Source: Planctomycetota bacterium
GTDB lineage: Bacteria; Planctomycetota; UBA8742; UBA2392
DNA length: 64,000 nucleotides
NCBI GenBank assembly: GCA_020848275.1
Contig: JADLAK010000012.1
Coordinates: 37,301 to 101,300 of the forward strand
Direction: 5' to 3'
Both the position numbers and the translations under genes were made by a program. Numbering within the stretch: the stretch's first letter is position 1; each line of letters starts with the position of its first letter. Below, piece after piece: positions 1,252 to 56,181 of this stretch. The notes under the pieces were generated by a model, which saw only the letters and a list, made by a program, of their open reading frames with translations, was not told the DNA's origin and did not search any database.

Positions 1252-3750
1252 ATGGCTGAAAGTGCGATCAACAAACGCGTGATGTCCTTCAGCTCCGGCG
1301 CAGTTGCCGATGACTCGCTGCTGCTTACCAAGCTGGCGGGCTCTGAGGAACTTTCGCGGCTCTACAGCTACGAGCTTGAGCTGATCTCCGACAAAGTCGA
1401 CCTCGACTTCGACAAACTGCTCAAGGAACCCGCAAAGGTCGGCATCAAGCAGGGCGTCAAGCTCGCGGGCGAAAACCGCCGCGGCGCGCAGACACTCAAG
1501 ATCCACGGCATGCTCTCGAAATTCGAACAGATCGAACGCCGGCTCGACCTCGTGCGCTACAAGGCCACCCTGGTGCCGCGGTTGTGGAAACTCGGCCTGA
1601 CTTACGAAAGCCGCGTCTTCCAGGACAAGACGGTCAAGGAAATCATCGCCGACGTGATGAAAGAGGCGGGTTTCACCACCGACGATTACGAAATCAAGGC
1701 CGGCAACGGCTACGCCAAGCGCGAGTTTGTCGTCCAGTACGAGGAAACCGACCTCGATTTCCTTTACCGCTGGCTCGAGCACGAGGGCATTTTCTTCTTC
1801 TTCGACAACAGCGGCGAGAAGGACAAGATCATCTTCGGCGACGCCGTCGGCCACTACCCGCGCATCCAGGGCAACTCGAATATTCCCTATCGCCCGACGG
1901 CCGACAACAACGCCCGGAGCGAGGGCGCGGAGTCCGAAAGCGCGTCGACGGACTGGTTCAAGGAAGAAGTCATCAACTTGTTTTCCTGCCGCCAGAGCGT
2001 GATTCCCAGGGAGGTCGTGCTGAAGGATTACAACTACCGCAAGCCGTCGGAAACGCTGCGCGTGGTCACGCAGGTAAGCCAGAACGGCGTCGGCCGCGTC
2101 TACGAATACAACAACCACTACAAGACCGAAGACGAGGGCAAGGCGCTTGGCAACATCCGCGCCCAGGAAATCGTGTGTCGCGAGAAAATCTTCAGCGGCG
2201 CTTCCGACTGCCGGGCGTTTCGCGGCGGCGCGACCTTTGAACTGCAGGAGCACTACCGCAACGATTACAACCGCGAGTACCTGATTACCCACGTCTCGCA
2301 TAACGCCGAACAGTCGATCCAGTTCAGCAGCGGCAACACCCTGGGCGCCTCCTACAACAATGCGTTTGTCTGCATCCCCTCGGACAGGCTCTTCCGGCCC
2401 GAGCGCACCACCAAATGGCCCGCCATCCACGGCATCATCAACGCGACCGTCGACGCCGCAGGCAGCGGCGACTACGCCGAAATCGACGACCAGGGCCGCT
2501 ACAAGGTCAAGTTGCCCTTTGACCTCTCGGACAAGAAGGATGGCAAGGCCTCGCGCTATCTTCGCATGGCCCAGCCGTATTCGGGTGAGGGTATGGGCAT
2601 GCACTTCCCGCTGCACAAGGGCACGGAAGTCCTCGTCACCTGCGTGGACGGCGACCCCGACCGCATGGTGATTTCGGCGTCGATCCCCAACCCGGAGACC
2701 GAAAGCCCTGTTACATCAGACAACCAGACGCAGAGCCAGATCCAGACCGGCGGCGGCAATGTGATCACGATGGAGGACCAGGACGGCAGCCAGCACGTGA
2801 CCATCGAGTCGCCTACACAGGGCACGGTGATTCGCATCGGCTCCAATTCCGGCGAAGAAGGGGAGGGCAGCGCCGGCGAGGGAGTGCATATCGCGACCGA
2901 CGGCGACCACACGCAGGAAACCGGCGGCGACGAGAACAAGACCATCGAAGGCGACGAAACCACGATCATTGAGGGCGACAAGGAAGAAACCATCAAGGGC
3001 AACAAGGAGGAGTCCGTCGACGGCCACGTCAAGGAGTTCATCGACAAGGGCACCGAAGCCTACAACATGGGTAATTTCTCCGAGTACATCCTTGGCATGA
3101 ACTCTTCAACGGTGCTTGGCATGGAGGCCTCGACGGTTGCGCCGCTCAAGCGCGACGGCGTCTACGGCATTTCCATGGAGTCCGTCCTGGGCATGACGGT
3201 TGAGACTTTCAAAGGCCTCAAGCTGTCCCACGAAAAAGGCATCTCGTTTGAAGTCTCGGACGTCAAGAAGTACGAGTTCGAGGCCCACCACGGCAAGAAA
3301 GTGCCCGGCATCTTCGCAACGATCGCCGGCATCGGCAAATACATCTACAACCGCCACAAGCTGATGTCGCAGGCCAGCACGCAGATTGCCGCCGCTGCGG
3401 CGCTGCAAGTTGAGGCCGGCAACATGGAAATGTCGGCGCTTCGGGCCGAGGCCATTTTTGGTTCGGACCACACGGACTGCACCGAGATGCGCCAGCGCGC
3501 CCAGCAACTCACGCAGGAAGCGACACTGTGGGAAGCCAAAGCGGCGGCGACCAAGATTTCGGCCCTCAACATCGACATTGGCGCAGGCGCCTTCACTATC
3601 GTCGGCGGCGGCGCTCCGCCGGTGGTGCCGCCCGCGGTGCCCAAGGTTGCCGCGGCTTCTGTCGCTGCCGAAAGCGCGGCTGCTGTCGCCGAAAACGCTG
3701 CGGCGGAGGCTGCTGCCAACGTCGCAAGCGCCGCAGCACCCAGCCAGTAA
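1252..3750 (+). CDS. vgrG: T6SS spike protein VgrG (TssI), 832 aa. It has a gp5-like C-terminal beta-helix repeat region and a further Ala-rich C-terminal extension of about 250 aa.
   Basis: N-terminal gp27-like VgrG signature (SFSSGAVADDSLLLTKLAGSEELSRLYSYELELIS). The central part is typical of VgrG. Octapeptide-like repeats GDETTIIEGDKEETIKGNKEES are present. The RBS is GAGGGA and the gene sits directly downstream of clpV. Confidence 0.85.
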   Translation: MAESAINKRVMSFSSGAVADDSLLLTKLAGSEELSRLYSYELELISDKVDLDFDKLLKEPAKVGIKQGVKLAGENRRGAQTLKIHGMLSKFEQIERRLDLVRYKATLVPRLWKLGLTYESRVFQDKTVKEIIADVMKEAGFTTDDYEIKAGNGYAKREFVVQYEETDLDFLYRWLEHEGIFFFFDNSGEKDKIIFGDAVGHYPRIQGNSNIPYRPTADNNARSEGAESESASTDWFKEEVINLFSCRQSVIPREVVLKDYNYRKPSETLRVVTQVSQNGVGRVYEYNNHYKTEDEGKALGNIRAQEIVCREKIFSGASDCRAFRGGATFELQEHYRNDYNREYLITHVSHNAEQSIQFSSGNTLGASYNNAFVCIPSDRLFRPERTTKWPAIHGIINATVDAAGSGDYAEIDDQGRYKVKLPFDLSDKKDGKASRYLRMAQPYSGEGMGMHFPLHKGTEVLVTCVDGDPDRMVISASIPNPETESPVTSDNQTQSQIQTGGGNVITMEDQDGSQHVTIESPTQGTVIRIGSNSGEEGEGSAGEGVHIATDGDHTQETGGDENKTIEGDETTIIEGDKEETIKGNKEESVDGHVKEFIDKGTEAYNMGNFSEYILGMNSSTVLGMEASTVAPLKRDGVYGISMESVLGMTVETFKGLKLSHEKGISFEVSDVKKYEFEAHHGKKVPGIFATIAGIGKYIYNRHKLMSQASTQIAAAAALQVEAGNMEMSALRAEAIFGSDHTDCTEMRQRAQQLTQEATLWEAKAAATKISALNIDIGAGAFTIVGGGAPPVVPPAVPKVAAASVAAESAAAVAENAAAEAAANVASAAAPSQ

Positions 3751-3767
3751 CCAGACACTGGAGCAGA

Positions 3768-6170
3768 ATGCAGATTGTGCTCGACAATTGCTTGCGTGTC
3801 GGCTGGACGGTGGGCAAATGGGCGCCGCCGCAACTGGCAGCGGCGTTTTTCGTCAAGGGCACTTTCAACCTGCTTCACGGCAAGACGGCTACGCCCTCCG
3901 ACAAGCCCGAGATCGTGTGCGGCGACGTGGCCGCGACGCAGGCCGAGCAAAGCAGCCTGCGCTATGCGTCGGATTTCGCGCCCATGAAAGTGAGAGCCGA
4001 TGTGCTGGTGGCTGGCACGGCGTACACGCCCGAGGGCAAACCCGCCACAGCGGTGCGCGCGGGGTTCGGCCTCGGCCCCGCCGACAAAAAGAGCATCCTT
4101 GAAAAGCGCCTGACGATCACTGGCCCGCGCGTCTGGAACAAAGGCCTCCTCACCAGCAAACCCGGCGAGCCGCAACCTTTTTTGAGCCTGCCGCTGATTT
4201 ACGAAAACGCATTTGGCGGGGCGGGCGTACCGACCAACCCCGTGGGCAAGGGCGTGGGCGACCTGATGCCGCAAATTGAGCTTGAGGGCGCGCCGGTGTT
4301 GTCGCCGCGCGACAAACACGCGCCCGCGGGTTTTGCGCCGCTGCACCCGACGTGGCATCCGCGCAACCACAAGCTTGGCCATTATGATGGCGCGTGGCTG
4401 AAGGAACGCTGGCCGTGGCTACCCAAGGATTTCAACTGGGAACATTTTAATGCCGCGCCGCGCGATCAGCAGGTTGACGGCTATCTGCGCGGCGATGAGA
4501 CGATTTATTTCCAGAACATGCACAAGCAGCACGCGCATTACTCCAGCGCGCTGCCGGGGCTGCGCGTGCGCCTGTTCGTGCAGGACAGGCACAAGGACGC
4601 ATCGCGCTTTCGCGAGGTGCCGGTCAAACTCGACACGTTGTGGGCCGACATGGACGCCGAAAAGCTCGTGCTGGTCTGGCGCGGGCAGGCGGAAGTCCAA
4701 ACGCTGAAGGCCCGGGAACTCGAGTACGTCTTTGCAGTCGTCGAGCCCTTGGCCGAAACGCCAAAGCCGATGTCGTACTGGCAAGCCGAACTCGCCCGCC
4801 GCATGGCACAGCCGGCGCCGCCCGCGCCCGAGGTCAAGGAACGCGAGAAGGACCCGACGCCGACGGTCGGCGCGCTGATGCAGGAGATGGACCCCTTGAT
4901 GACCGAGATGCACAAGCAGGAAGCGGTGATGGATGCGCACCTCGCCAACAACATCAAACAGCTTCAGGCCCGCAACCTGCCGACGACGGGGATGTCGACC
5001 AAGCCGCCGTACGGCCCGCAATCGCTGGCCGAAGTCCCGGCGTTCCTCAAGCAGATGGAAACGCTGGCCAACGCCAACCAGGCGGCGCATCTGGCGCAGC
5101 TTGCATCCAGCGGCAAAGCCGCCGCGTTCAAGTTGCCCGCCGAGATGACGCAGCCCATCCGCATCGAGCTTCCGCCCGAGCTCGCCAAGGCCGCGCAGAT
5201 TCAGCAGCAGGCAGGCAGGGTTCCGGCCGCTGCACCGCCGCAGCCCGACGACAACATCTGGACGCGCGAACGCGTGCTGGCCCACGCCAAGGCGGGCAAA
5301 CCCTTTGCGCGCGTGCGGCTGGGCGCCGTCGATCTTTCGGGCGTTGATCTTTCCGGCGCGAATCTGGCCTTTGTGCGCCTGAACAACGTCAAGCTCGCGG
5401 GCGCCAACCTTAGCGGCGCTGATATGACGGGCGCGGAGTGCGGCGCCGGCAACTTCGCGGGCGCGAAGCTGGTGCGCTGCAACCTGCACGGCGCGACGTT
5501 CACCGGCGCGGTACTTGCAGGCGCGGACCTCAGCGAGGCGCGGCTGGACGACACCAACTTCGTGAAGGCCGACCTTGCCAAGGCGAAACTCGCGGGCGCG
5601 CGCGGCTACGGCACGTATCTCGCCGAGGCCAACCTGGCGGAGATCAATGGCGCGGGTGTGAACATCGAGGGCGGCAACTTCACGGGCGCGATGGCCGAGA
5701 AAGCAAACTTCAAGGGCTCGAGGCTGATCGGTTGCGGCTTCATGCAGGCCAACGCCAAGGGCGCGGATTTTTCCGGCAGCGACCTGGCCAACTTCCGCGG
5801 CCAGAGGGGCAACTTCGAAGAAACGAAGTTCGCGCGCTGCAAGCTCGGCAATTCGGCCTGGACCGAGGCGAACCTCAAGCGCGCCGATTTCACGCACGCC
5901 GACCTGCCCAATTCGCTGTTTGATTTCGTTGTGCTGGAGGGCGCGTTGCTGGGCGCTGCCGACGCGACAGCCAGCAACTTCGCCGATTCGAACCTGAAGG
6001 CCGCGAAATTCGCCGTCGCCAACGGCATGCGCTGCAGCTTTGACCGCAGCGATCTTTCGCTGGTCGATTTCCAGGGCGCGAACCTTTATTGCGCCGAATT
6101 CTGGGACGCCGTGACCGTCGGCGCGGATTTCCGCAACGCCAATGTCGCCCGGACAACACTCTCGAAATGA
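3768..6170 (+). CDS. DUF2169-like N-terminal domain fused to a long pentapeptide-repeat (A(D/N)LxG) C-terminal domain. Candidate T6SS adaptor/cargo.
   Basis: The ATG at 3768 lies 17 nt after the vgrG stop. Roughly the first 480 aa are non-repetitive. About residues 520-800 are continuous pentapeptide repeats (ANLAFVRLNNVKLAGANLSGADMTGAEC...). The known vgrG-DUF2169-PRP-DUF3540-DUF4150 context supports the call. Confidence 0.6.
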   Translation: MQIVLDNCLRVGWTVGKWAPPQLAAAFFVKGTFNLLHGKTATPSDKPEIVCGDVAATQAEQSSLRYASDFAPMKVRADVLVAGTAYTPEGKPATAVRAGFGLGPADKKSILEKRLTITGPRVWNKGLLTSKPGEPQPFLSLPLIYENAFGGAGVPTNPVGKGVGDLMPQIELEGAPVLSPRDKHAPAGFAPLHPTWHPRNHKLGHYDGAWLKERWPWLPKDFNWEHFNAAPRDQQVDGYLRGDETIYFQNMHKQHAHYSSALPGLRVRLFVQDRHKDASRFREVPVKLDTLWADMDAEKLVLVWRGQAEVQTLKARELEYVFAVVEPLAETPKPMSYWQAELARRMAQPAPPAPEVKEREKDPTPTVGALMQEMDPLMTEMHKQEAVMDAHLANNIKQLQARNLPTTGMSTKPPYGPQSLAEVPAFLKQMETLANANQAAHLAQLASSGKAAAFKLPAEMTQPIRIELPPELAKAAQIQQQAGRVPAAAPPQPDDNIWTRERVLAHAKAGKPFARVRLGAVDLSGVDLSGANLAFVRLNNVKLAGANLSGADMTGAECGAGNFAGAKLVRCNLHGATFTGAVLAGADLSEARLDDTNFVKADLAKAKLAGARGYGTYLAEANLAEINGAGVNIEGGNFTGAMAEKANFKGSRLIGCGFMQANAKGADFSGSDLANFRGQRGNFEETKFARCKLGNSAWTEANLKRADFTHADLPNSLFDFVVLEGALLGAADATASNFADSNLKAAKFAVANGMRCSFDRSDLSLVDFQGANLYCAEFWDAVTVGADFRNANVARTTLSK

Positions 6171-8215
6171 CCGCCCTCGACCCCAGATTCGCAGCAGCCG
6201 CCAAGGGCAAGCCCGGTGCGCCCATTGGCGGCGACGAATTCCTCGCCGCGCTGGCAAAGGGCGAAAGCGTCGAGGCGCGGCAGTTGATCGGCGTTTCAAT
6301 GCAGGGCGCGGACCTGCGCGGCCGCAACCTTAGCGGTTGCATGATCGACAACGTTGATTTCAGCGGCGCGAATCTTGCTGGCGCAAACCTCAGCGACTGC
6401 ATGCTGACGCTGTGCAAGCTCGGCAACGCCAATCTTTCGGGCGCAAATCTCAAGGACGTGTTGTGGGCGCAATGTGAATTCAACGGCGCGAATATCGAGG
6501 GCGCGACGCTCGACAAGTCGCTCTGGGCGGAATGCAAGGGAGTGAACCTGCGCGCGCGCGGCGCCAAGGGCCCGGCGCGCATGGCCCAGTGTGAATTTCC
6601 CGACGCGGATTTTACGGGCGCGAGTTTTGACGGCATGGTCGTGGTCAAAAGCACGTTTACCGGCGCAAAGTGCGGCGGCGCGAGTTTCATCGACGCATGG
6701 CTGCCGGATTGCGCCTGGGCCGGGTCAGATTTCACCGGCGCCGATTTGTCGAAGGCCAGCTTCGAGGGCGGCGACATGGCGGGCGCAAAGTTTGAGAACG
6801 CCAACCTGAACTGGACCGTGCTTTCCTACTGCAACCTGGAGAAAGCGTCGTTCCAGGGCGCGAAGTTCGTGCGCTCCCAGTTGGACAACTGCAAGCTCGC
6901 GGGCGCAACCGGCTGGCCAAAATTGATCGAGAACATCGATTTCGAGGACGCCGACCTCGCGGGCCAGGCATTCAAGGAAATCGAGTTCAACCGCTGCAAT
7001 TTCAGCGGCGGCAAACTCGGCAAGATCGACTTCAGCGGCGCGCGCGTGTTGTCCTCGAATTTCAACAAGGCCGACCTGAAACAGGCTAACTTTGAAGGCG
7101 CATCGCTCGAGACCTGCCGCTTCGGCGAGGCCGACCTGACCGGCGCAAACCTTAGAAAAGCCAAGCTGCCCGGCTCGCGCCTGCGCAGCGCGCAACTTGC
7201 GGAAGCCGTGTACACCGGCGCGTCCTTTTGGGGCGCCGACGTCAGCCTTGCGCACTTCAACCCCCGTTCGTTGATTGCGGGCGCGATCGACGGCGCGCGC
7301 TTTGAAGGCGCAAATTTCGATGGCGTCGATTTCTCCGGCCGCAATCTGACCAACACCGCGTTCATCAAGTGCTCGCTGGTCGGCGCAAAGTTCGCCAACG
7401 CGCAGCTCACCAGCGCCAATTTCTCCGGCAGTGACCTCTCGGGCGCGGATCTTTCGGGCACGCGCAACGAGGCCGCGGGTTTTGAGAAGAGCAAACTCGT
7501 CAACGCGGATTTCAGCGGAGCGGTCATGTCCAGCGCGTTCTTTGCCGAGGCGCAACTTCAGGGTGCGAAATTCCACGGCACGCGCATGGAACGCACGACG
7601 CTGAAGGATTCGACCTTTGCGCAGGCGAGTGTCGAAAGGGCCTCGCTGCGCCAGTGCAACCTGCAGGGGCTGAATTTTGCCAGGCGCAGTTTTGCGGGCT
7701 GCGACTTTTCCGGCTCGGATTTCAGCGGCAGTGAGATGTCGGGCGTCGACCTTTCCGGCTGCGCGCTCGAAAACGCTTCGTTCAACGCAACCATCCTAAA
7801 AGACGCGAAGTTCCGCGATGTCATCGGCAAGACAATCAAGTTCGCCGATGCACAGCTTGGCGGCGCAAGCTTCGAGAACGCGCAGATCAGCGGCTCGTTC
7901 TTTGCCGGCGCATATGCGCAGAAATGCAACTTCACCGGCGCTGACCTGCGCATGTGCATCTTCGAAAAGGCCGACCTGCGCAACAGCCGCCTCGCCAACG
8001 CGCGCCTCAATTACGCCGACCTCAGCTACGCGCACCTCGACCTCAGCGATTTTTCCGGAGCCGACGTGCAGGGCGCGAATCTGCACGGCGTCGGCGAGCA
8101 GGGCACGATCTGGCGCAACGCCAACACCAGGGGTGCGCGCCGCAGCGACGACGAACGCCTGAAAGCGGACGCTTTCAAGCCGCCAAGGCCCAAGGTTACG
8201 GGAGACAAGGTATGA
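6167..8215 (+). CDS. Pentapeptide repeat protein of about 682 aa. Nearly the whole length consists of A(D/N)LxG repeats.
   Basis: The start codon overlaps the upstream stop (ATGA at 6167-6170). There are more than 100 consecutive pentapeptide units (GADLRGRNLSGCMIDNVDFSGANLAGANLSD...). Confidence 0.8.
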   Translation: MTALDPRFAAAAKGKPGAPIGGDEFLAALAKGESVEARQLIGVSMQGADLRGRNLSGCMIDNVDFSGANLAGANLSDCMLTLCKLGNANLSGANLKDVLWAQCEFNGANIEGATLDKSLWAECKGVNLRARGAKGPARMAQCEFPDADFTGASFDGMVVVKSTFTGAKCGGASFIDAWLPDCAWAGSDFTGADLSKASFEGGDMAGAKFENANLNWTVLSYCNLEKASFQGAKFVRSQLDNCKLAGATGWPKLIENIDFEDADLAGQAFKEIEFNRCNFSGGKLGKIDFSGARVLSSNFNKADLKQANFEGASLETCRFGEADLTGANLRKAKLPGSRLRSAQLAEAVYTGASFWGADVSLAHFNPRSLIAGAIDGARFEGANFDGVDFSGRNLTNTAFIKCSLVGAKFANAQLTSANFSGSDLSGADLSGTRNEAAGFEKSKLVNADFSGAVMSSAFFAEAQLQGAKFHGTRMERTTLKDSTFAQASVERASLRQCNLQGLNFARRSFAGCDFSGSDFSGSEMSGVDLSGCALENASFNATILKDAKFRDVIGKTIKFADAQLGGASFENAQISGSFFAGAYAQKCNFTGADLRMCIFEKADLRNSRLANARLNYADLSYAHLDLSDFSGADVQGANLHGVGEQGTIWRNANTRGARRSDDERLKADAFKPPRPKVTGDKV

Positions 8216-8739
8216 GCGACAACATTGGCATCGAACTCGGCACGTTGCTTACGCAGGCCCGCGTACTCGACGTTGAAGGCCGCGCGCTGAAGCTCCAGGC
8301 CGGCGAGCGCATCATCGCCGCAAATCTGGCGCTGCCTTACCCGTACAAGCCGCAAGTGGGCGACACGGTACTGGTGATTGCGCAGGGTGAAAGCGCCTGG
8401 GTGATCGGCGTGATCGAGGGAACGGGCCTGACCGCGTTTTCCGCGCCCGCGAACCTTGAGCTGCGCGCAACCCGCGGCCGCATCGTGCTCAATGCGCGTG
8501 ATGAAATCGAAATCAAGGCGCGCGACGTCAACATCAACGCCGACAACGCGAGCACGTTTGCGAAAAACCTGACCCAACAGGTCGAGAACCTTGACACCAG
8601 TGTCGCGGGGCTGGCGCTATTGCGTGCACGCGAAGAACGCACCGAGATCGAGCAAAGCAGCATCCTGCGCGCGGAAAACATCAACCAGCGCGCGCGCAAA
8701 GAAGTGAAAATCGACGGCGAGATCATCAACCTCGGTTAG
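8212..8739 (+). CDS. DUF3540-like protein, 175 aa (T6SS VgrG-module accessory).
   Basis: ATGA overlap with the upstream PRP stop (8212-8215). Size and position match the DUF3540 member of DUF2169-PRP-DUF3540-DUF4150 modules. No other recognisable motifs. Confidence 0.45.
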
Positions 8740-8748
8740 GAGAACCTA

Positions 8749-9171
8749 ATGGCTGGATTTCCTGTAGCGGTGGGAGGGCCGGGCCAGGCGATGTCCACGG
8801 GCCCGACCGACGTCTGCAAAGTGCCGGCGCCGCCCGCGCCGCCGATCCCGACGCCGTTTCCCAACATCGTGATGCTTGCGATGGTGAACCCGACATCGTG
8901 CAGTCCCAAGGTCAAGATCGAATACCTGCCGGTGCTGGTGGTCGGCAGCGAAATACCGATGTCCAACGGCGACGAAGCCGGCGTCGCCGGCGGCGTCGTC
9001 TCGAGCAAGTTCATTGGCGCCTGCAAGCCCACGTTGGGCTCGATGAAAGTAATGATCGGCGGCAAACCTGTCGTCTACATGACGTGCCTGACCATGCACA
9101 ACGGCATGCCCGCCAACACCGTCGGCCAAGTCCTCGTCGCGGGACAGGTCCGCGTCATGGTCATGGGGTAA
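8749..9171 (+). CDS. PAAR-like (DUF4150-like) small spike-tip protein, 140 aa, with no C-terminal toxin domain.
   Basis: Strong RBS AGGAGA 7 nt upstream. The sequence is Gly/Val-rich and PAAR-like ([21 protein letters not shown]...[23 protein letters not shown]). It is the last gene of the vgrG module. Confidence 0.5.
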
Positions 9172-11192: not shown

Positions 11193-11621
11193 ATGAACAC
11201 CTACGACATTCACCTCGATCTGAAATACAAGCCGCTGGAGGTGTGCGACGCGGGCAAGATCGCCGACAACTGCGGCAAGGATTGGTGGAACCAGTCGCTG
11301 GTGAACGTGAACGAGAGCGTGATTCGCGTCGGCGTGTTCCTTGGCGAATTTCACTGGCACAAACACGACCGCGAAGACGAATTCTTCTGGGTGATCGACG
11401 GCTTGCTGCTGCTCGACCTCGAAACCGAAGAGGGTGACCCGTTTGGCAGCCACAAACTCAAGCCGGGTGAATCGCCCAAGCCCGGGAAGTTCCGCACCGT
11501 CGAGCTGTCGCCGCGCCAGGGCCTGATGGTGCCCAAGGGTGTGGTGCACCGCACCCGCGCCAAAGTTCGCACCACTGTGTTGATGGTCGAACCCGCCACC
11601 GTAAAACCGACAGGGGACTAG
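11193..11621 (+). CDS. Small cupin-domain protein, 142 aa.
   Basis: Cupin_2-like two-His motifs (FHWHKHDREDEFFWVIDG ... PKGVVHRT). Confidence 0.55.
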   Translation: MNTYDIHLDLKYKPLEVCDAGKIADNCGKDWWNQSLVNVNESVIRVGVFLGEFHWHKHDREDEFFWVIDGLLLLDLETEEGDPFGSHKLKPGESPKPGKFRTVELSPRQGLMVPKGVVHRTRAKVRTTVLMVEPATVKPTGD

Positions 11622-11706
11622 CGTAACTATTGATTTCAGAAGCTTTTGCGGCGTCGTGCCGTGTCATGGTGAAAGCATCGAGAAATTACGTCTATTCTTC
11701 CGATGG

Positions 11707-11734
11707 TTGACTGGAGGGTTGAAGGCCATATACT
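11707..11734 (+). promoter_or_regulatory. Sigma70-like promoter (TTGACT-N16-TATACT) upstream of the ImmA-like gene, inside the low-GC islet.
   Basis: TTGACT at 11707-11712 and TATACT at 11729-11734. An AGAAGGG RBS precedes the ATG at 11790. Confidence 0.35.
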
Positions 11735-11789
11735 TTCGCGCCACAATAGTTGGCAGTTGGGTAGGCGCCGGACAGAAGGGTGTAAAACC

Positions 11790-12212
11790 ATGTTGAATGC
11801 AGTCGATGTTCATGAAATTTGTGATCAGCACAATATCGACGTTCAAGAAATTGAATTAGGCGAATGTGCAGGATTCATTTCCTGCACGTCTGATAAGTGG
11901 GTCATTTCGGTAAACAAGGGTGATCCGCTAGTTCGACGTCGTTTCACAATAGCGCACGAATTGGGACATTTTTTTCTCCACTTAAGTCGGGGCTCGGTTC
12001 GAATTGATCGACCGCTCCATCGAAGCATTAATGCGTCGAACTCCGCGCAGGAGCGAGAGGCAAATGCATTTGCTGCAGCTTTGTTGATGCCCGCCAATGT
12101 CTTGCAAGCTGCTGTGAATGAAGGAAAGCCGACAAACGTCTTGGCGAGGGAGTTGTTGGTTTCCGCGTCTGCGCTGAGTTGGAGGCTTCAAGACCTTGGC
12201 CTGAAGAAGTGA
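11790..12212 (+). CDS. ImmA/IrrE-family (DUF955, COG2856) zinc metallopeptidase, about 140 aa.
   Basis: HEXXH motif HELGHFFLH followed by ...EREANAFAAALLMP, typical of ImmA/IrrE. It lies in a lower-GC segment. Confidence 0.7.
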   Translation: MLNAVDVHEICDQHNIDVQEIELGECAGFISCTSDKWVISVNKGDPLVRRRFTIAHELGHFFLHLSRGSVRIDRPLHRSINASNSAQEREANAFAAALLMPANVLQAAVNEGKPTNVLARELLVSASALSWRLQDLGLKK

Positions 12213-12254
12213 TATCTGACAAACGGCCAAATACGCAGTGCCGCCAGAAGTCGT

Positions 12255-14639
12255 TTGTGGCGGCACTTTTTATTGGGTTTGCCAATGCTTGATCAAGAAT
12301 TGATTCGCGGCGTCGAGGCAATCTCAGATTCGTCCAACGAAGCTGAGGTCGAAGACAAGGTCGTTCTCCCTCTTCTGAAACGATTTGGGATAACGGCGAA
12401 TGACTTCATTCCGCAAGGCGAAATTCCGCGACTAGATATCGCCAAGGGAGTGGAAGTCAAGAGAGCTTTTCTTCCGGACTACCTGCTGACTTTTTTCGGG
12501 CTCTATGTTGCAGTGATTGAGGCGAAGTCTCCCAGCGAGTCGGTGCAAAATGCATATAGAGAGGCGTGTTTCTATTCAACCGAACTTCACCGTCAACTTG
12601 GCACATTAACAGATGTCAAGGTTGCCGTGGGCTGCAACGGTCGCGAAATTTGGGTAGGAACTCCTGAAACTTCCGACAAGGACGCCAAGAAATACGATGT
12701 CCGCAAATTGGTATCTAGCCCCACACTTCTGGCCGAACTCGAGGCGTGGATTGGCCGAAAAACATTAAATGACCATGCCAACGAGCGAAGACTGGCACGT
12801 CGCCTTGGGGAGGCTTCAAACGTTAGGACCGACCTCTTTCTTGGTGCGGCCATTCCCAAGAATGAGCACAACTCGTTCTATCCGGCCATTCGACCGTTGC
12901 TGAATACATATTTTGGCAATCTAAGCCTCCTGCGCGATGAGCTGTTCCTAAAGGGGTATTGCGACCCGTCTGAACAGCAGCGAACGCGCGAAGAAGAAGA
13001 TGTTTTGCGTGATCGCCCCCCTGCCCGTTCAGACGCCAAGTTGCTCACGCGACATAACGCTGATGAGTTGGTGGGCGACATAGTTAGGCACTTTCATTCA
13101 TACCATACAGGTGAAGACACCTCCTTTGAGCCGGATCGATTCTTTCTCCTCCTCGGCGCGGCGGGTGCGGGCAAGTCCACATTTACTTGGTGGTACACGA
13201 AGTTCTCCGTCGATCACAAAAAATGTGTCCCGATATTGATTGATGGGACGAAGGCCCCTCAAGACTCGGAACCACTTTTCGCGCACACGTTGCAAAAGCT
13301 CACGAGTACGGTTCACGAATTCCTAGTTGCCAATGTTTACGGAGGTGATCGACAACGGGCTATTCGATCTATATTGCGCGAATCTTGGGAGAAGGACTAC
13401 TACGAGTTCTTTCATCCGAAGATTGAAAAGCCAGATTACTTGGATCAGCACTTTCCAAAGTTAGCAAAGCCGATAAAGGAAAGTGATGAGGTGTTTTTGC
13501 CATTTCTGCTTGAGGATCTACATCGCAACGGGCTTGTCGCCATGCTCATCGTTGACAATTTAGACCTAACCAACGTCGCAAGACAGCTAGATGGGTTTAA
13601 ACTGTTTCGGCCGTTTTCCCAACAATTCGAGGTTCTTATCGGCCTCGTCCTTCGGGACGAGACATGGCAATTTTACGCAAAACGCAAACCTTTCGAGGGA
13701 TTTCATAGCTCTCCAACTTTTTACATCGCCGGACCGTCCCTATCTGAATTGATCGACAAGCGTGTGGAAGTGATGACTGAAGGCCTAGGCCAAACTGGGA
13801 AAAGGAATGTGGTGATCCCATTCGGGGCCAACAAGAACATGAAGTTAGAGCTTTCGATGAAGGACACCGCAGAACTAATTGCAAAGGTCCATGAAGGACT
13901 CTCTAAGCCAGACGACCTGCATTTGATTGAAGGCGTCTGTGGGAAGAACAATCGCAATGGTCTAGACGCGTTTGCTGTTGTCTGTACATCTTCGTACGTC
14001 GAGGAGATCAATCTTCTTCAGCCGACTTTCAAGGTCGGAGCGTTTGACCCCTCGCGAGCGCAGCTGTTGAAAGCGCTGATTTGCGGGGATAGTAAGTACT
14101 ACGATTCACATTCGAGCTTTGTGGCGAATGCCTATACATTTGGCCAGGGAACAGACGGGTCAAGCATTTTTGTGGTACTCCACATACTTCGAGAACTGCT
14201 TTTTAAAGCCGGAGGCACTCCTGGATTCGGAAAGGGCTATGTGCCCCTTACGGACCTACAGGAGTTGTTGATGAAGTGGCTTCCGCTCGATGTTTCCGAG
14301 TTGCGTCGCATTACATTTGGAATCGTACGGACGGGGATTTGGCAAGTAGACACGTTTGAGCCAACATCCGAATCAGATTTCAATGCGGTTCGAATTCAAG
14401 AGCAGGGATTGTATCTGTTGAAGACCTTGTACAAGGATGACACGTACCTCGAATGCATGGCATTCGATACCGCAATAGCGGATCGATTCACGTTGGGAGA
14501 GTTGGTAGAGGCGTTCAAAAGCGATCGACGCTGCTCCGACCTCTTTTTGACCTACCTAAAGGGCAAAGAAGTGATTGAAGTTGAACACGCGTCAGCTAGA
14601 GGATTCAAGCTCGATCCAAGCCGAAAGAAATTCATGTAG
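12255..14639 (+). CDS. Fusion of an HsdR_N-like PD-(D/E)xK nuclease domain and a NACHT/STAND-like P-loop NTPase with a C-terminal uncharacterised domain (794 aa). Candidate defence protein. The true start may be the ATG at 12285 (MLDQ...).
   Basis: N-terminal HsdR_N-type motif (VVLPLLKRFGI...PDYLLTFFGLYVAVIEAKSP). Walker A LLLGAAGAGKST. Walker B-like hhhhD motif MLIVDNLDL (NACHT-like). Low GC. Immediately upstream of tRNA-Leu. Confidence 0.6.
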   Translation: MWRHFLLGLPMLDQELIRGVEAISDSSNEAEVEDKVVLPLLKRFGITANDFIPQGEIPRLDIAKGVEVKRAFLPDYLLTFFGLYVAVIEAKSPSESVQNAYREACFYSTELHRQLGTLTDVKVAVGCNGREIWVGTPETSDKDAKKYDVRKLVSSPTLLAELEAWIGRKTLNDHANERRLARRLGEASNVRTDLFLGAAIPKNEHNSFYPAIRPLLNTYFGNLSLLRDELFLKGYCDPSEQQRTREEEDVLRDRPPARSDAKLLTRHNADELVGDIVRHFHSYHTGEDTSFEPDRFFLLLGAAGAGKSTFTWWYTKFSVDHKKCVPILIDGTKAPQDSEPLFAHTLQKLTSTVHEFLVANVYGGDRQRAIRSILRESWEKDYYEFFHPKIEKPDYLDQHFPKLAKPIKESDEVFLPFLLEDLHRNGLVAMLIVDNLDLTNVARQLDGFKLFRPFSQQFEVLIGLVLRDETWQFYAKRKPFEGFHSSPTFYIAGPSLSELIDKRVEVMTEGLGQTGKRNVVIPFGANKNMKLELSMKDTAELIAKVHEGLSKPDDLHLIEGVCGKNNRNGLDAFAVVCTSSYVEEINLLQPTFKVGAFDPSRAQLLKALICGDSKYYDSHSSFVANAYTFGQGTDGSSIFVVLHILRELLFKAGGTPGFGKGYVPLTDLQELLMKWLPLDVSELRRITFGIVRTGIWQVDTFEPTSESDFNAVRIQEQGLYLLKTLYKDDTYLECMAFDTAIADRFTLGELVEAFKSDRRCSDLFLTYLKGKEVIEVEHASARGFKLDPSRKKFM

Positions 14640-14684
14640 GGCTCACACGCGGCTCGGAATGCGCTTTGTCGGGTCACAATCATA

Positions 14685-14768
14685 CGGACGTGGCGGAATG
14701 GCAGACGCGCCAGACTTAGGATCTGGTGAGGCAACTCGTGTGGGTTCAAGTCCCACCGTCCGTACCAT
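14685..14768 (+). tRNA. tRNA-Leu (anticodon TAG), type II with long variable arm, CCA encoded.
   Basis: Manual fold. Acceptor ACGGACG/CGTCCGT. D-arm GCG-GAATGGCAGA-CGC. Anticodon stem CCAGA/TCTGG with loop CTTAGGA. 13-nt variable arm. T-arm GTGGG-TTCAAGT-CCCAC. Discriminator A, then CCA. Closely resembles E. coli tRNA-Leu. Confidence 0.85.
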
Positions 14769-14813
14769 TCGACTCGGAAGGCGCTCGTCAGAGCGACTTC
14801 CGAGTCGAATGGT
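14766..14813 (+). terminator. 16-bp perfect inverted repeat (CCATTCGACTCGGAAG ... CTTCCGAGTCGAATGG) with a 16-nt loop, overlapping the tRNA-Leu CCA end. No U-tract follows.
   Basis: Seen directly in the sequence. Function is uncertain (terminator or processing structure). Confidence 0.3.
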
Positions 14814-15130
14814 ATCCTGAGCGAGCGCAGCGAGAAAAAAGCAAAGGCGCGGAGTGCCGGTATTTCTTTAGCATCCACCGCAAGGTGGGTGTTTTCGTCG
14901 GAGAAAACTGGCCGAGGCGCGAAAGCGCCGACACCCGGTGCCGCCGCTACGCGGCTTGGCATCAATTCTGCCCAACCGAAACCACCGCCTTTCGGCGGTG
15001 GCTAAACAGATGACGGCGCTACGCGCCTCACAACTTTTCCGCCGGACCGCTTCTGTCCTCGCGAAGCTTCGCTGAAGCTTCTGCTCGGCCCCGCTCCCTG
15101 TGGTCGCCACGCGCGGCTCGTAAAAGGCCG

Positions 15131-41081: not shown

Positions 41082-41156
41082 TGGCCCGTAGTGTAATTGG
41101 TAACACAACAGATTCTGGATCTGTTTTTCTTGGTTCGAGTCCAAGAGGGCCAGCCA
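41082..41156 (+). tRNA. tRNA-Gln (anticodon CTG), 75 nt, CCA encoded.
   Basis: Manual fold. U1-A72 pair and G73 discriminator (Gln identity elements). D-arm GUGU/ACAC. Anticodon stem ACAGA/UCUGU with loop UUCUGGA. T-arm CUUGG-UUCGAGU-CCAAG. One G7.A66 mismatch. Confidence 0.75.
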
Positions 41157-41194
41157 ACTTCAGTGAAAGCCCGAATGTGCCGGGCCGTCATTGA

Positions 41195-41233
41195 GCCCGC
41201 CGTCACCAGAACGGCGGGTTTTGCATTTGTTTT
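41195..41233 (+). terminator. Rho-independent terminator after tRNA-Gln.
   Basis: GCCCGCCGT-cacca-ga-ACGGCGGG followed by TTTTGCATTTGTTTT. Confidence 0.6.
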
Positions 41234-41306
41234 CCCGACGCGTGACAGAAGCGCGCATATCTGGCAACATTCGCCGATTCAAACGGGCCCGGATCGAGTC
41301 GAGACC

Positions 41307-42362
41307 ATGATGAAAAAGCGAATCTTCGCGGAGTTTGCGTTGTTGGGCGTGATTGCGGCGGTATGCCTTGTCATAGCCTGGCCTGAAGCGGCGGGCGTCA
41401 ACAAGGTCGCCGGCGACAATGTCATTGCCGATCCCAAGGATCCCAAGGCTTCACAGGCGCCCGCCGTTGCGCGCACGGCCTATGTCGACTTCGTGAAGTT
41501 GCTCAAGAACGACCCGCTGTTCCTGACGGCGCAACTGAAGGAGATGCATAAGCTCGAGATCGATATGCGCGAGGAGGCCACGACCTTCGACGCCAAACAC
41601 GCCAATGACAAGAAACGCCTTGAGGCCATCAAGCCCGACGAGATGGAATATCGCGACCTGATGAAGGACATCATCGAAAGCAGCGCGAAATCCAACCGCA
41701 AACGCATGACGTTGGAGTCCGAGGCCCAGCGCACAATAGACGAGGAAGCCCAGAAGGCCTTCAAGCGCATCAAGGACCTCGTGGCCGAAATATCAAAGAC
41801 CAAGGGTTATAGCCAGGTCATGCTGATCTCGAGCACGCCCGCCAAGGGCCTCAAGTTCGACGAACTGCAAAAGCAACTGCTGCTAAGCCCGATGTTGATT
41901 TACCCGGAAGAGGACGACATCACCAAGTTCGTCGAGAAGGAAAACTTCCGCCGCAGTTACGGTTATCTTGAAATCGGCGACTCCACGGCCAAGGAAGGCA
42001 CGATCGAGAATGACGGCGTCTGGACGGAAGATGACAAGGGCAATAAGACGCAGCGCGCCGCCAAAGATAAGGTCAATAACGCCGCGGACGTCTGGTTTGA
42101 GTGCAAAGTCGGCGCCAGGTTGTCGCTCAAGTGCGCCGTGACGGACCTCGACGAAAACGACAAGCGCGTGCCCGCCAAACCCGCCAACGCCGAGGTCGAA
42201 TGGACGCTCATCAGGCTGCAGACCGGCACCCTCGACGAAAAAACCGGCGTCTACACGGCGCCCGACGCGATGCCCGCCGCCGGCGACATCGTCTCCATAA
42301 GAGTCAGTTGCAAGAAGGCCCCCTACAAGAACACGACCATCCGTGTGCGGCTGATCAAGTAG
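41307..42362 (+). CDS. OmpH/Skp-like periplasmic chaperone domain with a C-terminal extension of about 150 aa.
   Basis: Signal/TM (FALLGVIAAVCLVIAWP). Coiled-coil Skp-like region rich in K/E. Directly upstream of lpxD, the conserved skp-lpxD arrangement. Confidence 0.55.
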   Translation: MMKKRIFAEFALLGVIAAVCLVIAWPEAAGVNKVAGDNVIADPKDPKASQAPAVARTAYVDFVKLLKNDPLFLTAQLKEMHKLEIDMREEATTFDAKHANDKKRLEAIKPDEMEYRDLMKDIIESSAKSNRKRMTLESEAQRTIDEEAQKAFKRIKDLVAEISKTKGYSQVMLISSTPAKGLKFDELQKQLLLSPMLIYPEEDDITKFVEKENFRRSYGYLEIGDSTAKEGTIENDGVWTEDDKGNKTQRAAKDKVNNAADVWFECKVGARLSLKCAVTDLDENDKRVPAKPANAEVEWTLIRLQTGTLDEKTGVYTAPDAMPAAGDIVSIRVSCKKAPYKNTTIRVRLIK

Positions 42363-55149: not shown

Positions 55150-56181
55150 CTACGCGGGAAGCAGGCCCATTAACCGTCGCCGCACTTCCGGCCACGGACA
55201 GTTAAGATCGACGGTACAGACCCGAATGCGCTGGCCATGCACGCGATATTCAAGGTCAAGCGTTCGATCCACAGTCGGATACAGCAAAATGCCTTCGACG
55301 TCCCGCAAGGGGTCGCCGCGTCGCAGCATGTTCACAACGTAGATATAGAGTTGATTTAGGTTGTCGCTGCGAACCCTGTTACCGCCGAAGCGATTCTCGG
55401 CGAGCGATTGGCCATAGAACTTCGCATCAATCACCACGACGCGTGAATCCCTGCACAGGGTTACATCCGTCTCCAAGCGCGGCAAGAAGGCTAGGTCCTC
55501 GTCGCTCGCCTCGACATCGTGCCAATTGAAGTGCCGGTCGCCTTCGTACCAATCACGGCATTCACGCCTATAGAAATTCCGCACGAAGGCTTCGAAAAGT
55601 CTTTCGAGTTCTGTGTCCGAGAAGTCTGAGAATTTCAAGCTGCCATCGCGCTGATCCGGGAACATGTGGTCGAAGATGAATCGACATATGCGCAGCAGCA
55701 ACGCGTAGCGCGGGCCACTGCGCTGCAACATGGCTGAGTGAAAGTGATCGGAGTTCAGCGGAATCTCGCCGATAGAACGAAGGCGGCGATCAAGGCCGCT
55801 GAGTTGCGCCGCTAAGCCTTCGTCGAGGTCTGCGCGACGAAGCAGGCGAAGGATGGTAGTTCGCACGATCTGGTTGCTCAGAGTGTCATGGTTGAGGTCG
55901 TCAAAGCGGCAGAAGGTGCGGCCTTGCGGTAATACCAGTGCTTTGACCGATTCGCCAAAATCGATGCGCCCGCGCAGCCCCGCAACTTGCTCAGATTGCG
56001 TTGCATATTCCCGCCTCAGGCCGCGTCGCAACTGGTCATCCATGCCATGGATAAGCACGCGTGCGAACAAGTCCATCAACGTTGTTGGGCCTGCAACGTC
56101 GGCGGCCACAGCGTCCCCTACGTCAAGGAAGTCCCAGGCGTACAGCAGCAGGTAATAGATGTTGGCTATCGGAATATTCAT
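55150..56181 (-). CDS. mcrC: McrC-like PD-(D/E)xK nuclease subunit of an McrBC-type modification-dependent (type IV) restriction system.
   Basis: N-terminal IPIANIYYLLLYAWD block typical of McrC. PD-(D/E)xK core ...VVIDAKFY. 4-nt overlap with mcrB. Confidence 0.7.
   Translation of the reverse strand: MNIPIANIYYLLLYAWDFLDVGDAVAADVAGPTTLMDLFARVLIHGMDDQLRRGLRREYATQSEQVAGLRGRIDFGESVKALVLPQGRTFCRFDDLNHDTLSNQIVRTTILRLLRRADLDEGLAAQLSGLDRRLRSIGEIPLNSDHFHSAMLQRSGPRYALLLRICRFIFDHMFPDQRDGSLKFSDFSDTELERLFEAFVRNFYRRECRDWYEGDRHFNWHDVEASDEDLAFLPRLETDVTLCRDSRVVVIDAKFYGQSLAENRFGGNRVRSDNLNQLYIYVVNMLRRGDPLRDVEGILLYPTVDRTLDLEYRVHGQRIRVCTVDLNCPWPEVRRRLMGLLPA

Follow-up and report, generated by a model that had tools for sequence, protein, structure and literature searches.

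The window analysed here, a 64,000-nt stretch of a contig from a Planctomycetota bacterium, contains a low-GC islet at positions 11622-14640 whose gene content is limited to two co-directional genes on the forward strand, ORF A and ORF B. GC content in the islet is 0.494, against 0.627 in the remaining window (z = -6.1; other 3-kb windows: mean 0.628, sd 0.022, minimum 0.558), and the fall begins directly past the cupin stop codon at 11621. GC3 was 0.48 in ORF A and 0.54 in ORF B, compared with 0.81-0.87 in acs, cupin, orn, and pckA, the housekeeping genes that surround the islet in the window with no defence island among them. The islet is compositionally foreign, and the low-GC segment placed at about 11.63-14.65 kb by a preliminary description of this DNA is borne out by both measures. 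The upstream non-coding region, including the left edge of the islet (11622-11789, forward strand), was delimited by reading of the sequence, a promoter scan, and the GC fall, and carries a GAAGGG Shine-Dalgarno-like motif ahead of the ATG at 11790. It also holds TTGACT-N16-TATACT at 11707-11734, the sole promoter-like match in 4.2 kb; shuffled sequences give 2.9 such matches, so the islet's proposed own sigma70-like promoter is not above chance, and what speaks for these hexamers is their position. The islet ends 44 nt upstream of a tRNA-Leu(TAG) gene (14684-14767, forward strand; ARAGORN), which marks its right edge and, as a neighbour, lies outside the cassette; past it, a 24-nt inverted repeat occupies 14763-14814. 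A repeat search revealed no duplicated tRNA fragment and no direct or att-like repeats flanking the islet; the islet also lacks an integrase, ImmR, and phage genes, and no HTH ORF was found in 11622-11789 or elsewhere in it. The suggestion of a tRNA-associated hotspot is weak, as the islet is situated upstream of the tRNA 5' end, neither an integrase nor att-like repeats are present, and other cassettes lie beside secA or bshC; neither this argument nor the promoter match is given weight.

ORF A (11790-12212, forward strand) encodes a stand-alone M78 (ImmA/IrrE-fold) zinc peptidase of 140 aa, with its start set at the ATG at 11790 in agreement with the NCBI ImmA/IrrE model (P0166, 140 aa) and differing from that of the longest ORF. 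The Pfam profile PF06114 matched over positions 1-122 of 123 (E = 1.1e-21, 77.4 bits, cut-off 22), and the HEXXH motif, H56-E57-L-G-H60 (nt 11955-11969), together with the conserved glutamate E88, was invariant in an alignment of 48 sequences; residues 66-85 form a flexible loop. No HTH or GAF domain was detected in ORF A. The best match in PADLOC was capP (3e-26, profile positions 20-131 of 242); PD-Lambda-2_B and many RmrA profiles matched as well, the latter being covered in their peptidase part only (e.g., 164-292 of 380). In addition, an AF2 model (pLDDT 89) found CapP (7t5t; E = 3e-5) and PprI/IrrE (8sln/3dti) as its top Foldseek neighbours. When normalised to ORF A, the TM-scores of these matches were 0.62-0.70 (CapP 0.70); normalised to the target, they were 0.37-0.42 (CapP 0.37). 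The earlier identification of an ImmA/IrrE HEXXH peptidase without an adjacent HTH partner gene is upheld.

Between the two genes lies a 72-nt spacer (12213-12284, forward strand) in which folding and an inverted-repeat search located a strong hairpin, GTGCCGCCA-N11-TGGCGGCAC at about 12238-12266, followed by TTTTTATT (dG -26.9 kcal/mol, z = -3.3 vs shuffles). The element looks like a terminator or attenuator placed between ORF A and ORF B; similar T-tailed hairpins were present in two related cassettes (L028 and L047) and absent from three others (L024, L029, and L046).

ORF B (12285-14639, forward strand) encodes a protein of 784 aa from the ATG at 12285, in agreement with NCBI model P0001; the 794 aa reported previously correspond to the longest ORF, from a TTG at 12255. 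Its N-terminal 175 residues (12285-12809) constitute an HsdR_N-type PD-(D/E)xK nuclease domain, in which the fold (by model match to HsdR) and the catalytic D...(D/E)xK residues are present, namely the family-invariant D65 (nt 12477-12479) and E79 and K81 (nt 12519-12527). PF04313 (HsdR_N) scored 24.3-24.4 bits on ORF B, just under its cut-off of 25.1, and matched 48 of 57 relatives at E <= 1e-3, while an EcoAI-type HsdR model reached E = 0.047 over the N-terminus only. A helical linker (residues 176-280, 12810-13124), defined by the secondary structure of the model and by conserved columns that include N196, F210, and Y225, connects the nuclease to an ORC/Cdc6-type AAA+ ATPase (residues 281-600, 13125-14084). 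The latter contains a Walker A motif, G291-x2-G294-x-G296-K297-S298 (nt 13155-13178), a Walker B motif, D424-N425-L-D427 (nt 13554-13565), and R457, located where strand 4 ends; in its model, strand 2 is followed by a large helical insert (residues 328-414, between strands 314-320 and 418-424), and lid helices at 486-600 carry R493 and R557. By motif resemblance to Cdc6, R557 is a candidate sensor 2. D65/E79/K81, both Walker motifs, R457, R493, and R557 were invariant in 83 sequences of the family. Given the D-N-x-D form of Walker B with its invariant Asn, ATP hydrolysis by ORF B is putative. The C-terminal region (residues 601-784 plus the stop codon, 14085-14639), as judged from the secondary structure of the model, is winged-helix-like and helical, with helices at 630-679, strands at 686-704, and helices at 706-783; residues 630-704 form a helix-helix-helix-strand-strand unit, and Y721 is invariant. 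By alignment, no S1 or RRM domain was found at the C-terminus of ORF B, unlike in many relatives (S1 in 10/57 and RRM_1 in 1/57 family members).

The best structural neighbours of the centre of ORF B were Cdc6/Orc proteins, with TnsC and DnaA also matched, and the domain shows, by motifs and model, the features listed for the ORC/Cdc6 clade, i.e., Walker A and B, helices inserted behind strand 2, and a C-terminal helical lid followed by a wHTH (PMC12839542). Thus, of the architecture proposed previously, the HsdR_N-type PD-(D/E)xK domain, the P-loop ATPase, and a further C-terminal domain were retained, whereas the NACHT-like assignment of the ATPase gave way to Cdc6/ORC; likewise, of the matches expected from remote-homology comparison, that to HsdR_N was obtained by fold, and those to NACHT and KAP were not obtained. 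For NACHT/STAND, no NACHT, NB-ARC, or Avs match at E <= 1 was found in Pfam and PADLOC, STAND structures scored below Cdc6/ORC, and among the 57 relatives one weak NACHT match and five weak nSTAND_NTPase5 matches were noted. A KAP NTPase was rejected as well, with no KAP_NTPase match to ORF B, no membrane segments evident in the model, and weak KAP_NTPase matches in 8/57 relatives. TPR, WD40, and LRR searches yielded no repeat-domain match, and the C-terminus of the model is wHTH plus helical. PADLOC-DB v2.0.0 contained no significant model for ORF B (best mad3, E = 0.0079, and IetA, E = 0.034, both through the P-loop only), so the PADLOC run proposed for the large protein returned no known defence system. 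With its nuclease and ATPase residues invariant across the family and a confident structure model that matches both Cdc6/ORC and HsdR, ORF B is predicted to be a competent effector.

The pairing of the two genes was recovered in 6/6 independent lineages of the ORF B subclade (the window, L024, L028, L029/30, L046, and L047-49, all those sampled and mostly on short contigs), in each of which ORF B is immediately preceded, at a gap of 53-90 nt, by a co-directional M78-fold gene. Flanking genes vary by lineage (acs/cupin and tRNA-Leu, secA, bshC, or an integrase), identities across the six lineages are 24-51% for ORF A and 30-47% for ORF B, and ORF A and ORF B diverge in the same order. In L029/L030 the cassette has a GC content of about 0.50 within a genome at 0.67-0.70, and no HTH gene was called in the L024, L028, L046, and L047 cassettes. 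In L047 an integrase is located 1.4 kb upstream, and in another locus (L025) a related M78 gene lies inside a P2-like prophage. The view that the two genes form a cassette is confirmed by this pairing in differing contexts: ORF A and ORF B are a real cassette that travels together in several unrelated bacteria. The M78 partner is specific to the subclade represented in the window, as an M78 profile search of 37 loci of the wider family gave no matches. Moreover, HEXXH is replaced by RQLGQ, ELLGQ, or RAIGI in the ORF A partners of L029, L046, and L047, all three of which also delete the 66-85 loop, although their ORFs are intact and conserved (L029 vs L046: 38% identity, E = 7e-30). With the active site gone in half of the lineages, proteolysis is probably not the primary role of the peptidase in this system, and the sequences suggest that ORF A-type partners probably act mainly in a non-catalytic manner.

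The wider ORF B family is large and uncharacterised, comprising at least 863 clusters (50% identity, E <= 1e-30) scattered over distant phyla and corresponding to phrog_14719; no description of it was found in the literature. In five viral contigs its members lie directly downstream of a CI-type HTH+S24 repressor, and other copies come after an integrase or a lysis cassette; 50,697 cultured phage genomes yielded no match. Eight plasmids carry a copy beside a TA pair, a recombinase, or rep/par genes, including a Desulfocapsa plasmid (between a replication initiation gene and parA) and a Phaeobacter plasmid (near repA and parA); plasmid copies sit among maintenance genes, a RelE/ParE pair being one example. 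Elsewhere, a homologue adjoins SIR2-HerA (L010) or lies between type IV restriction-like genes (L005). No conserved neighbour was detected in the wider family and most members are solo genes, suggesting that the large protein can work alone.

Several known systems resemble parts of the cassette. RosmerTA (RmrT/RmrA), in which the ImmA domain is a hub antitoxin (PMC10440598), and PD-lambda-2, which contains an Xre-peptidase component (PMC9519451), are likewise two-gene modules of an ImmA/M78 protein and a highly variable toxic effector, the toxicity of ORF B being putative. However, RmrA and PD-lambda-2B carry an Xre HTH at the N-terminus and reach about 360-400 aa, whereas ORF A has 140 aa and no HTH. 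In the present cassette the effector combines nuclease and AAA+ domains in 784 aa and is also widespread without a partner, and half of the partners are pseudo-peptidases. ORF A also shares the M78 fold of CapP/CapH, IrrE(PprI)/DdrO, and ImmA/ImmR, of which CapP/CapH is encoded beside immune operons (PMC13228613), but these pairs need a co-encoded HTH repressor as substrate, and ORF A has no adjacent HTH gene. CapP and IrrE further need a C-terminal GAF domain that forms an ssDNA-sensing groove with the peptidase domain (PMC13228613), and this domain is missing in ORF A, as reflected in its partial coverage of the capP profile. For ORF B, ATPases of the ORC/Cdc6 clade are known from other conflict systems (BrxC, SspC, TnsC, RdrA, and the Orc/Cdc6-REase neighbourhoods of the Aravind laboratory), where the described versions have an inactive REase between ATPase and wHTH, HerA/FtsK coupling, or a C-terminal REase. 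In ORF B, by contrast, nuclease and ATPase share one polypeptide chain, which begins with an HsdR_N-type nuclease that appears to be active; ORF B has no HerA/FtsK, PglZ, or methyltransferase partner and no PADLOC model. It differs from Avs/AVAST and bNACHT (STAND NTPases) in having neither a STAND profile match nor a C-terminal repeat sensor. With the type I restriction subunit HsdR it shares the N-terminal PD-(D/E)xK domain of HsdR_N type, but HsdR has an SF2 helicase motor (ResIII/Helicase_C) and HsdM/HsdS, none of which accompanies ORF B according to Pfam and NCBIfam, and the remainder of the protein is unrelated.

Taken together, the islet is most likely a horizontally acquired, self-contained two-gene module directed against invading phage or plasmid nucleic acids, a reading to which we assign a probability of roughly 0.55. 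We infer from the comparisons above the defence function, the nuclease activity, the ATP switching, the physical interaction of ORF A with ORF B, and the direction of regulation. ORF B would act as the effector and, probably, as the sensor too. Nucleic acid would be bound by the winged-helix region at its C-terminus (S1 or RRM in relatives) and cut by its HsdR_N-type PD-(D/E)xK domain, and its ORC/Cdc6-type AAA+ module would serve as a nucleotide-dependent switch or oligomerisation platform. By analogy with the ImmA-domain antitoxins of RosmerTA type, ORF A most likely restrains or tunes ORF B through binding, in an antitoxin-like manner, although its role could be sensing instead of restraint, and an obligatory antitoxin is not a family trait because most family members have no partner. 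The intact zinc site in the ORF A of the window may allow proteolysis to add a step of release or activation, with ORF B, ORF A itself, or an invader protein as possible substrates, and the terminator-like hairpin would keep the effector below the level of its partner. A defence role is plausible from genomic context, and the candidacy of the islet as an anti-phage module draws support from the prophage, plasmid, and defence-gene contexts of the family and from the defence regulators and antitoxins among the M78 relatives of ORF A, but not from the housekeeping neighbours in the window or from a PADLOC model for ORF B. Tentatively, and at somewhat less than even odds, the cassette may represent a previously undescribed two-component immune system, in which a Cdc6/ORC-type AAA+ switch fused to an HsdR_N nuclease is controlled by an M78-fold protein of its own. 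Starting from an active ImmA-like peptidase, that protein would have become a conserved pseudo-peptidase in half of the lineages, and the peptidase fold would serve primarily for binding or regulation and not for proteolysis.

Gene order and the terminator-like hairpin, which fit an antitoxin encoded first at a high level and a toxin second at a low level, would also suit a pure addiction (toxin-antitoxin) module, with ORF B as nuclease toxin and the M78-fold protein as antitoxin, that stabilises itself or its mobile element and provides no phage defence. The known role of the ImmA domain as a hub antitoxin, the plasmid copies among maintenance genes, and the pseudo-peptidase partners, consistent with neutralisation by binding, point the same way. 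However, most family members are partnerless, those on plasmids and in prophages included, so that ORF B-type proteins are not constitutively toxic, and a 784-aa protein of sensor-like architecture would be an atypical type II toxin; such a module is considered unlikely, and as a separate reading it is weakened by the overlap of TA and defence roles in practice (PMC10440598). ORF B might instead be a restriction-type enzyme working by itself, either type IV-like or otherwise driven by NTP as a fused McrBC would be, that cuts modified or otherwise foreign DNA directly, with the peptidase as a transcriptional or post-translational regulator unrelated to toxin control. This is improbable, as database annotations merely name these proteins automatically after the N-terminal domain, ORF B has no SF2 helicase, GTPase-type McrB domain, methyltransferase, or specificity subunit, and its ATPase belongs to the Cdc6/ORC initiator clade, whose members act as switches or loaders and not as translocases; many relatives, moreover, carry S1 or RRM domains at the C-terminus, whose ligands are RNA or ssDNA and not modified dsDNA.

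ImmA-type peptidases belong to the ImmR/ImmA switches of prophages and ICEs (PMC13228613), the wider ORF B family adjoins CI repressors and integrases, and both the L047 integrase and the M78 gene in the P2-like prophage would agree with a degenerating remnant of the lysogeny region of a prophage or ICE, i.e., a leftover ImmA anti-repressor beside an unrelated moron with no functional link. That explanation is very unlikely and already disfavoured: pairing in six lineages at low identity, with congruent divergence and different flanks, is unexpected of debris, neither ImmR nor an integrase or phage genes occur in the islet, none of the 37 other family loci matched the M78 profile, and both ORFs of the window are intact with all motifs present. 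Equally hard to sustain is a factor for replication, partition, or integration of a mobile element, namely a Cdc6/ORC-like initiator with a nicking nuclease and no immune role, despite the structural matches to replication initiators, TnsC, and DnaA and the proximity of the Desulfocapsa and Phaeobacter plasmid copies to rep and parA genes. No other replicon or transposon genes occur in the islet or in the other cassettes, plasmids bearing the gene already have a Rep protein of their own, the family consists of scattered single chromosomal genes with no conserved neighbour, and C-terminal S1/RRM domains are unusual for initiators.

For the source genome, the islet represents one small acquired accessory module that is not central to the biology of the organism. 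For the family, the defence reading, if right, would give a function to a large group of unknown function that occupies classic lysogenic-conversion positions in prophages as well as plasmids and is missed by current defence-finding tools. If true, it would also add a case of a nuclease effector gated, within a single polypeptide, by an ATPase of the initiator type (Cdc6/ORC) and not by one of STAND or ABC type. Furthermore, the active and inactive M78 partners amount to a natural experiment that bears on how ImmA-type 'antitoxins' act, via proteolysis or binding, a question shared with RosmerTA-like systems.

The low-GC islet at window positions 11622-14640 comprises only two co-directional genes on the forward strand, ORF A (11790-12212) and ORF B (12285-14639). 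The compositional anomaly reported in the preliminary description was confirmed, with a GC content of 0.494 in the islet compared with 0.627 in the remaining window (z = -6.1; other 3-kb windows: mean 0.628, sd 0.022, minimum 0.558), and with GC3 values of 0.48 (ORF A) and 0.54 (ORF B), whereas acs, cupin, orn and pckA on either side have 0.81-0.87. ORF A (140 aa) probably starts at ATG 11790 and ORF B (784 aa) at ATG 12285, in agreement with two NCBI gene models from a Planctomycetes MAG, which are 100% identical to the window. The 794-aa protein described previously corresponds to a real reading frame, the longest one for ORF B, from TTG 12255, but its likely product is the 784-aa protein. 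The sigma70-like promoter assigned to the islet (TTGACT-N16-TATACT) had to be abandoned, since 1 match in 4.2 kb compared with 2.9 in shuffled sequence makes it statistically weightless. Moreover, the islet lies upstream of the 5' end of the tRNA-Leu(TAG) gene (14684-14767, beginning 44 nt past the islet end), not at the 3' end, where tRNA-targeting integrases usually leave islands. A repeat scan revealed no direct repeats, att sites or duplicated tRNA fragment in the islet, and its gene content includes no integrase, so that the suggested tRNA hotspot was not upheld. A 24-nt inverted repeat (14763-14814, 96% complementary, 4-nt loop) starts within the 3' end of the tRNA-Leu gene and is probably its terminator.

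Other loci were also detected in the window. A type VI secretion spike cluster (1252-9171, forward strand) directly upstream of acs encodes VgrG (Phage_GPD, Phage_base_V, gp5_C), DUF2169-pentapeptide, long pentapeptide-repeat, DUF3540 and Tox-PAAR-like proteins. McrC-like (PF10117) and McrB-like AAA_5 genes at 55150-57935 (reverse strand), where GC is mildly low (0.55-0.58), form an McrBC-type type IV restriction pair and therefore a second, conventional defence locus. In addition, a 421-aa ORF without a Pfam match (41097-42362, forward strand) starts within tRNA-Gln (41082-41156), in a kilobase of lower GC (0.56).

ORF A encodes a Peptidase_M78 domain (PF06114, E 1e-21 over the full profile length), with an intact H56-E-x-x-H60 motif and E88, neither of which varies among 48 relatives. 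The best structural matches of its AlphaFold model (pLDDT 89) were CapP (7t5t) and PprI/IrrE (8sln, 3dti), with about half of each target covered (TM-score 0.62-0.70 on ORF A normalisation, 0.37-0.42 on target normalisation). PADLOC, recommended earlier as a check, matched ORF A to positions 20-131 of the 242-position capP profile, and to the peptidase part only of the RmrA and PD-Lambda-2_B profiles; ORF B had no significant match in PADLOC or NCBIfam. In CapP and IrrE, the peptidase and a C-terminal GAF domain form a groove that senses ssDNA, and the protein cleaved is an HTH repressor from a neighbouring gene (PMC13228613). In contrast, ORF A has neither a GAF nor an HTH domain, nor an HTH neighbour gene at the window locus, and is therefore a lone M78 domain and not a CapP/ImmA-type switch, which agrees with the initial reading of an ImmA/IrrE peptidase lacking a cognate repressor. 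A CapP-like ssDNA sensor was ruled out for ORF A, since both the GAF domain and a CapH partner are missing.

For ORF B, the match to HSDR_N in the family libraries (24.3 bits) fell below the cut-off of 25.1, and the P-loop matches were weak. The structure model built on an 83-sequence alignment (pLDDT 91.6, pTM 0.80) nevertheless revealed an N-terminal HsdR_N nuclease fold, with the PD-(D/E)xK triad (D65, E79 and K81) invariant in the 83 relatives, as are G291, G294, G296 and K297 of Walker A, D424-N425-x-D427 of Walker B, and R457, R493, R557 and Y721. The nuclease assignment made earlier thus stands at the level of fold, with a sub-threshold profile score. In Walker B (residues 424-427, window 13554-13565), the invariant Asn occupies the position of the catalytic Glu usual in AAA+ proteins, which hints that the ATPase may switch on nucleotide binding and hydrolyse little. 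Around R557, a GxNxRxALxxF motif presumably resembles the Cdc6 sensor-2 motif, and we take two features, Walker B with its D-x-x-D spacing and the Arg ending strand 4, to be STAND-like as well. Of the four hallmarks listed for the ORC/Cdc6 clade (PMC12839542), the model further shows three, namely a large insert of helices that follows strand 2 (328-414), a lid made of helices, and a unit resembling a winged helix (630-704); the fourth is an arginine finger. As modelled, the ATPase is thus an initiator-clade AAA+ and not the NACHT/STAND-type ATPase proposed before; profile (Pfam, PADLOC) and structural comparisons likewise ruled out a NACHT/Avs assignment. Of the anticipated remote homologies, the HsdR_N fold was recovered, but NACHT and KAP were not. 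Accepted memberships were M78 for ORF A and HsdR_N nuclease fold plus ORC/Cdc6-clade AAA+ for ORF B, and those rejected were NACHT/Avs, CapP/CapH, ImmA/ImmR, full RmrA, HsdR and KAP.

The pairing of the two genes is conserved among the ORF B relatives nearest the window copy (30-47% identity to it, 783-792 aa, no S1 or RRM domain), a small sample of six independent lineages including that of the window, mostly on short contigs, all six of which carry the pair with a gap of 53-90 nt. The closest ORF A relative, protein P0167 (51% identity), is followed on contig L024, downstream of secA, by an ORF B relative with 47% identity over the 228 residues present on the contig. Among the other ORF B relatives, P0122 (38%) is directly preceded by a called Peptidase_M78 gene, P0133 (35%) by an uncalled 125-aa ORF, and P0138 (32%) and P0165 (30%) by called genes of 125 aa and 127 aa without Pfam annotation. 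The uncalled M78-like ORF, intact over 125 codons in contigs L029 (1370-1747, GCA_013328895.1) and L030 (5533-5910, GCA_013328875.1) and absent from the deposited annotations, has RQLGQ in place of HEXXH. BLAST shows these three small partners to be homologues both of ORF A (E 1e-6 to 2e-13) and of the partners in L024 and contig L028 (1e-8 to 2e-14); an M78 profile of 54 sequences that include them scored them at about 1e-25, and PF06114 at E 2e-4, 0.018 and 0.21. The settings of the cassette vary (acs/cupin with tRNA-Leu, secA, bshC, near an integrase), and its GC content is 0.45-0.55 in all of them, even inside a genome at 0.67-0.70. Furthermore, both genes rank the lineages in the same order by divergence from the window copy (L024 > L028 > L029 > L046 > L047), which is the expectation for co-inheritance. 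Searches for further members of this subclade yielded only a known contig in a metagenome scan, and none in a viral scan or a profile search of a word-indexed database.

HEXXH is kept in three lineages (window, L024 and L028) and replaced in the other three by RQLGQ, ELLGQ or RAIGI, with the downstream Glu also lost. The HEXXH-less partners have a deletion where the ORF A model has its low-confidence loop (66-85), and possess the C-terminal LLMPA...WR..LG motif; they are intact ORFs kept across lineages (L029 versus L046: 38% identity, E 7e-30). Because a pseudo-enzyme is conserved, the comparison argues that the main job of the partner would not need proteolysis.

Between the two genes of the window, a strong hairpin with a T-run behind it (12238-12272; dG -26.9, z -3.3) has equivalents in L028 and L047 and not in the other three cassettes, and would fit partial termination holding ORF B expression below that of ORF A. 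Across window 12210-12287, both ORFs share one frame, separated only by the TGA of ORF A and 24 sense codons, as also seen in L028. A readthrough fusion was dropped owing to extra stops in L029 and L046 and different frames in L024 and L047, and the shared frame is probably a coincidence.

Beyond the subclade, an exhaustive profile search recovered 3,007 cluster representatives with E <= 1e-3, of which 863 also pass E <= 1e-30, for the ORF B family, which corresponds to phrog_14719, of unknown function there. HSDR_N was matched in 48/57 family members, with a C-terminal S1 domain in 10/57 and an RRM in 1/57, the window ORF B having neither tail; weak matches to AAA_22, AAA_16, KAP and nSTAND in these members mirror the ORC/Cdc6-STAND continuum. 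Carriers include 20 genome loci (Thermodesulfobacteriota, Alpha-, Beta- and Gammaproteobacteria, Acidobacteriota, Bacillus), 12 IMG/VR contigs and 8 plasmids, and no match was found in cultured phage genomes. An all-against-all neighbour comparison found no conserved partner gene for the wider family, and no M78 gene was found in its loci with a single-sequence search, or in 37 of them with a profile.

The most frequent neighbour domains of the family were Peptidase_S24, HTH_3 and Phage_integrase. In five IMG/VR contigs (L034, L035, L036, L041 and L043), a CI-type HTH_3 plus Peptidase_S24 repressor lies directly upstream on the same strand, a slot that we take to be the rexAB position of phage lambda. 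An integrase is the upstream gene in locus L039, a lysis cassette lies upstream in the Bacillus loci, a SIR2-HerA system follows the member in L010, and type IV restriction-like genes flank that in L005. Neighbours on plasmids are a RelE/ParE pair plus a recombinase, or rep on one side and parA on the other. On Phaeobacter inhibens plasmid pP51_d (L044, 6220-9993), a RelE/ParE toxin and an HTH antitoxin flank the member on one side, and a small gene of the recombinase family on the other; small serine recombinases were used as defence-gene markers in a recent paper, in which the ORF B family is not mentioned. Split or truncated copies (L014, L021, L022 and L023) suggest frequent decay, typical of accessory genes. 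These neighbourhoods represent an accessory, conflict-related gene ecology and not a housekeeping one. Members of the Bacillus-type branch share an upstream gene of their own, conserved at 47-98% identity and about 165 aa long (L003 7439-7951, L037 4805-5305, L038 4813-5331, L040 4816-5304), unrelated to M78 and without a match among PDB sequences; the best Pfam match of the L040 copy is SocA_Panacea, at a sub-threshold E of 0.0068.

The analysis establishes which domains are present, which residues are invariant, that the cassette is conserved and in which genomic settings the family lives; a defence role, nuclease and ATPase activity, binding between the two proteins and the direction of control are inferred. 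Judged from sequence, the pair may consist of a nuclease effector gated by its ATPase and a partner of ImmA type. ORF B would be a self-contained sensor-effector, in which the winged helix at the C-terminus (in relatives, S1 or RRM) would bind invader-derived nucleic acid, the Cdc6/ORC-type module would switch or oligomerise upon nucleotide binding, and the HsdR_N nuclease would cut. In the subclade, the M78-fold partner may bind ORF B and restrain or tune it, with proteolysis as an optional added layer in lineages like that of the window.

The probability that the cassette is a defence module is put at about 0.55. The remainder is shared by a pure addiction module, a restriction-type enzyme accompanied by an unrelated regulator, a mobile-element replication factor, and prophage debris, the last being disfavoured by the conservation of the pair in six lineages. 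The nearest analogue for the role of the M78 partner under the defence reading is the ImmA domain, the hub antitoxin of RosmerTA-type defence systems (PMC10440598), and PD-lambda-2 also has an Xre-peptidase component (PMC9519451). The combination of Orc/Cdc6 ATPases with restriction-endonuclease-fold domains is a recognised conflict-system theme (PMC10853773), but the described forms have an inactive REase inserted before the wHTH, HerA/FtsK coupling or a C-terminal REase, from all of which ORF B differs. No PADLOC model or published description of the ORF B family or the cassette was found.

Candidate defence systems are numerous; the split between active and pseudo-peptidase partners, together with the size of the orphan family, makes this one a reasonable study target. 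If the Panacea identity in the Bacillus-type branch is real, a second hub-antitoxin domain would partner the same effector family.
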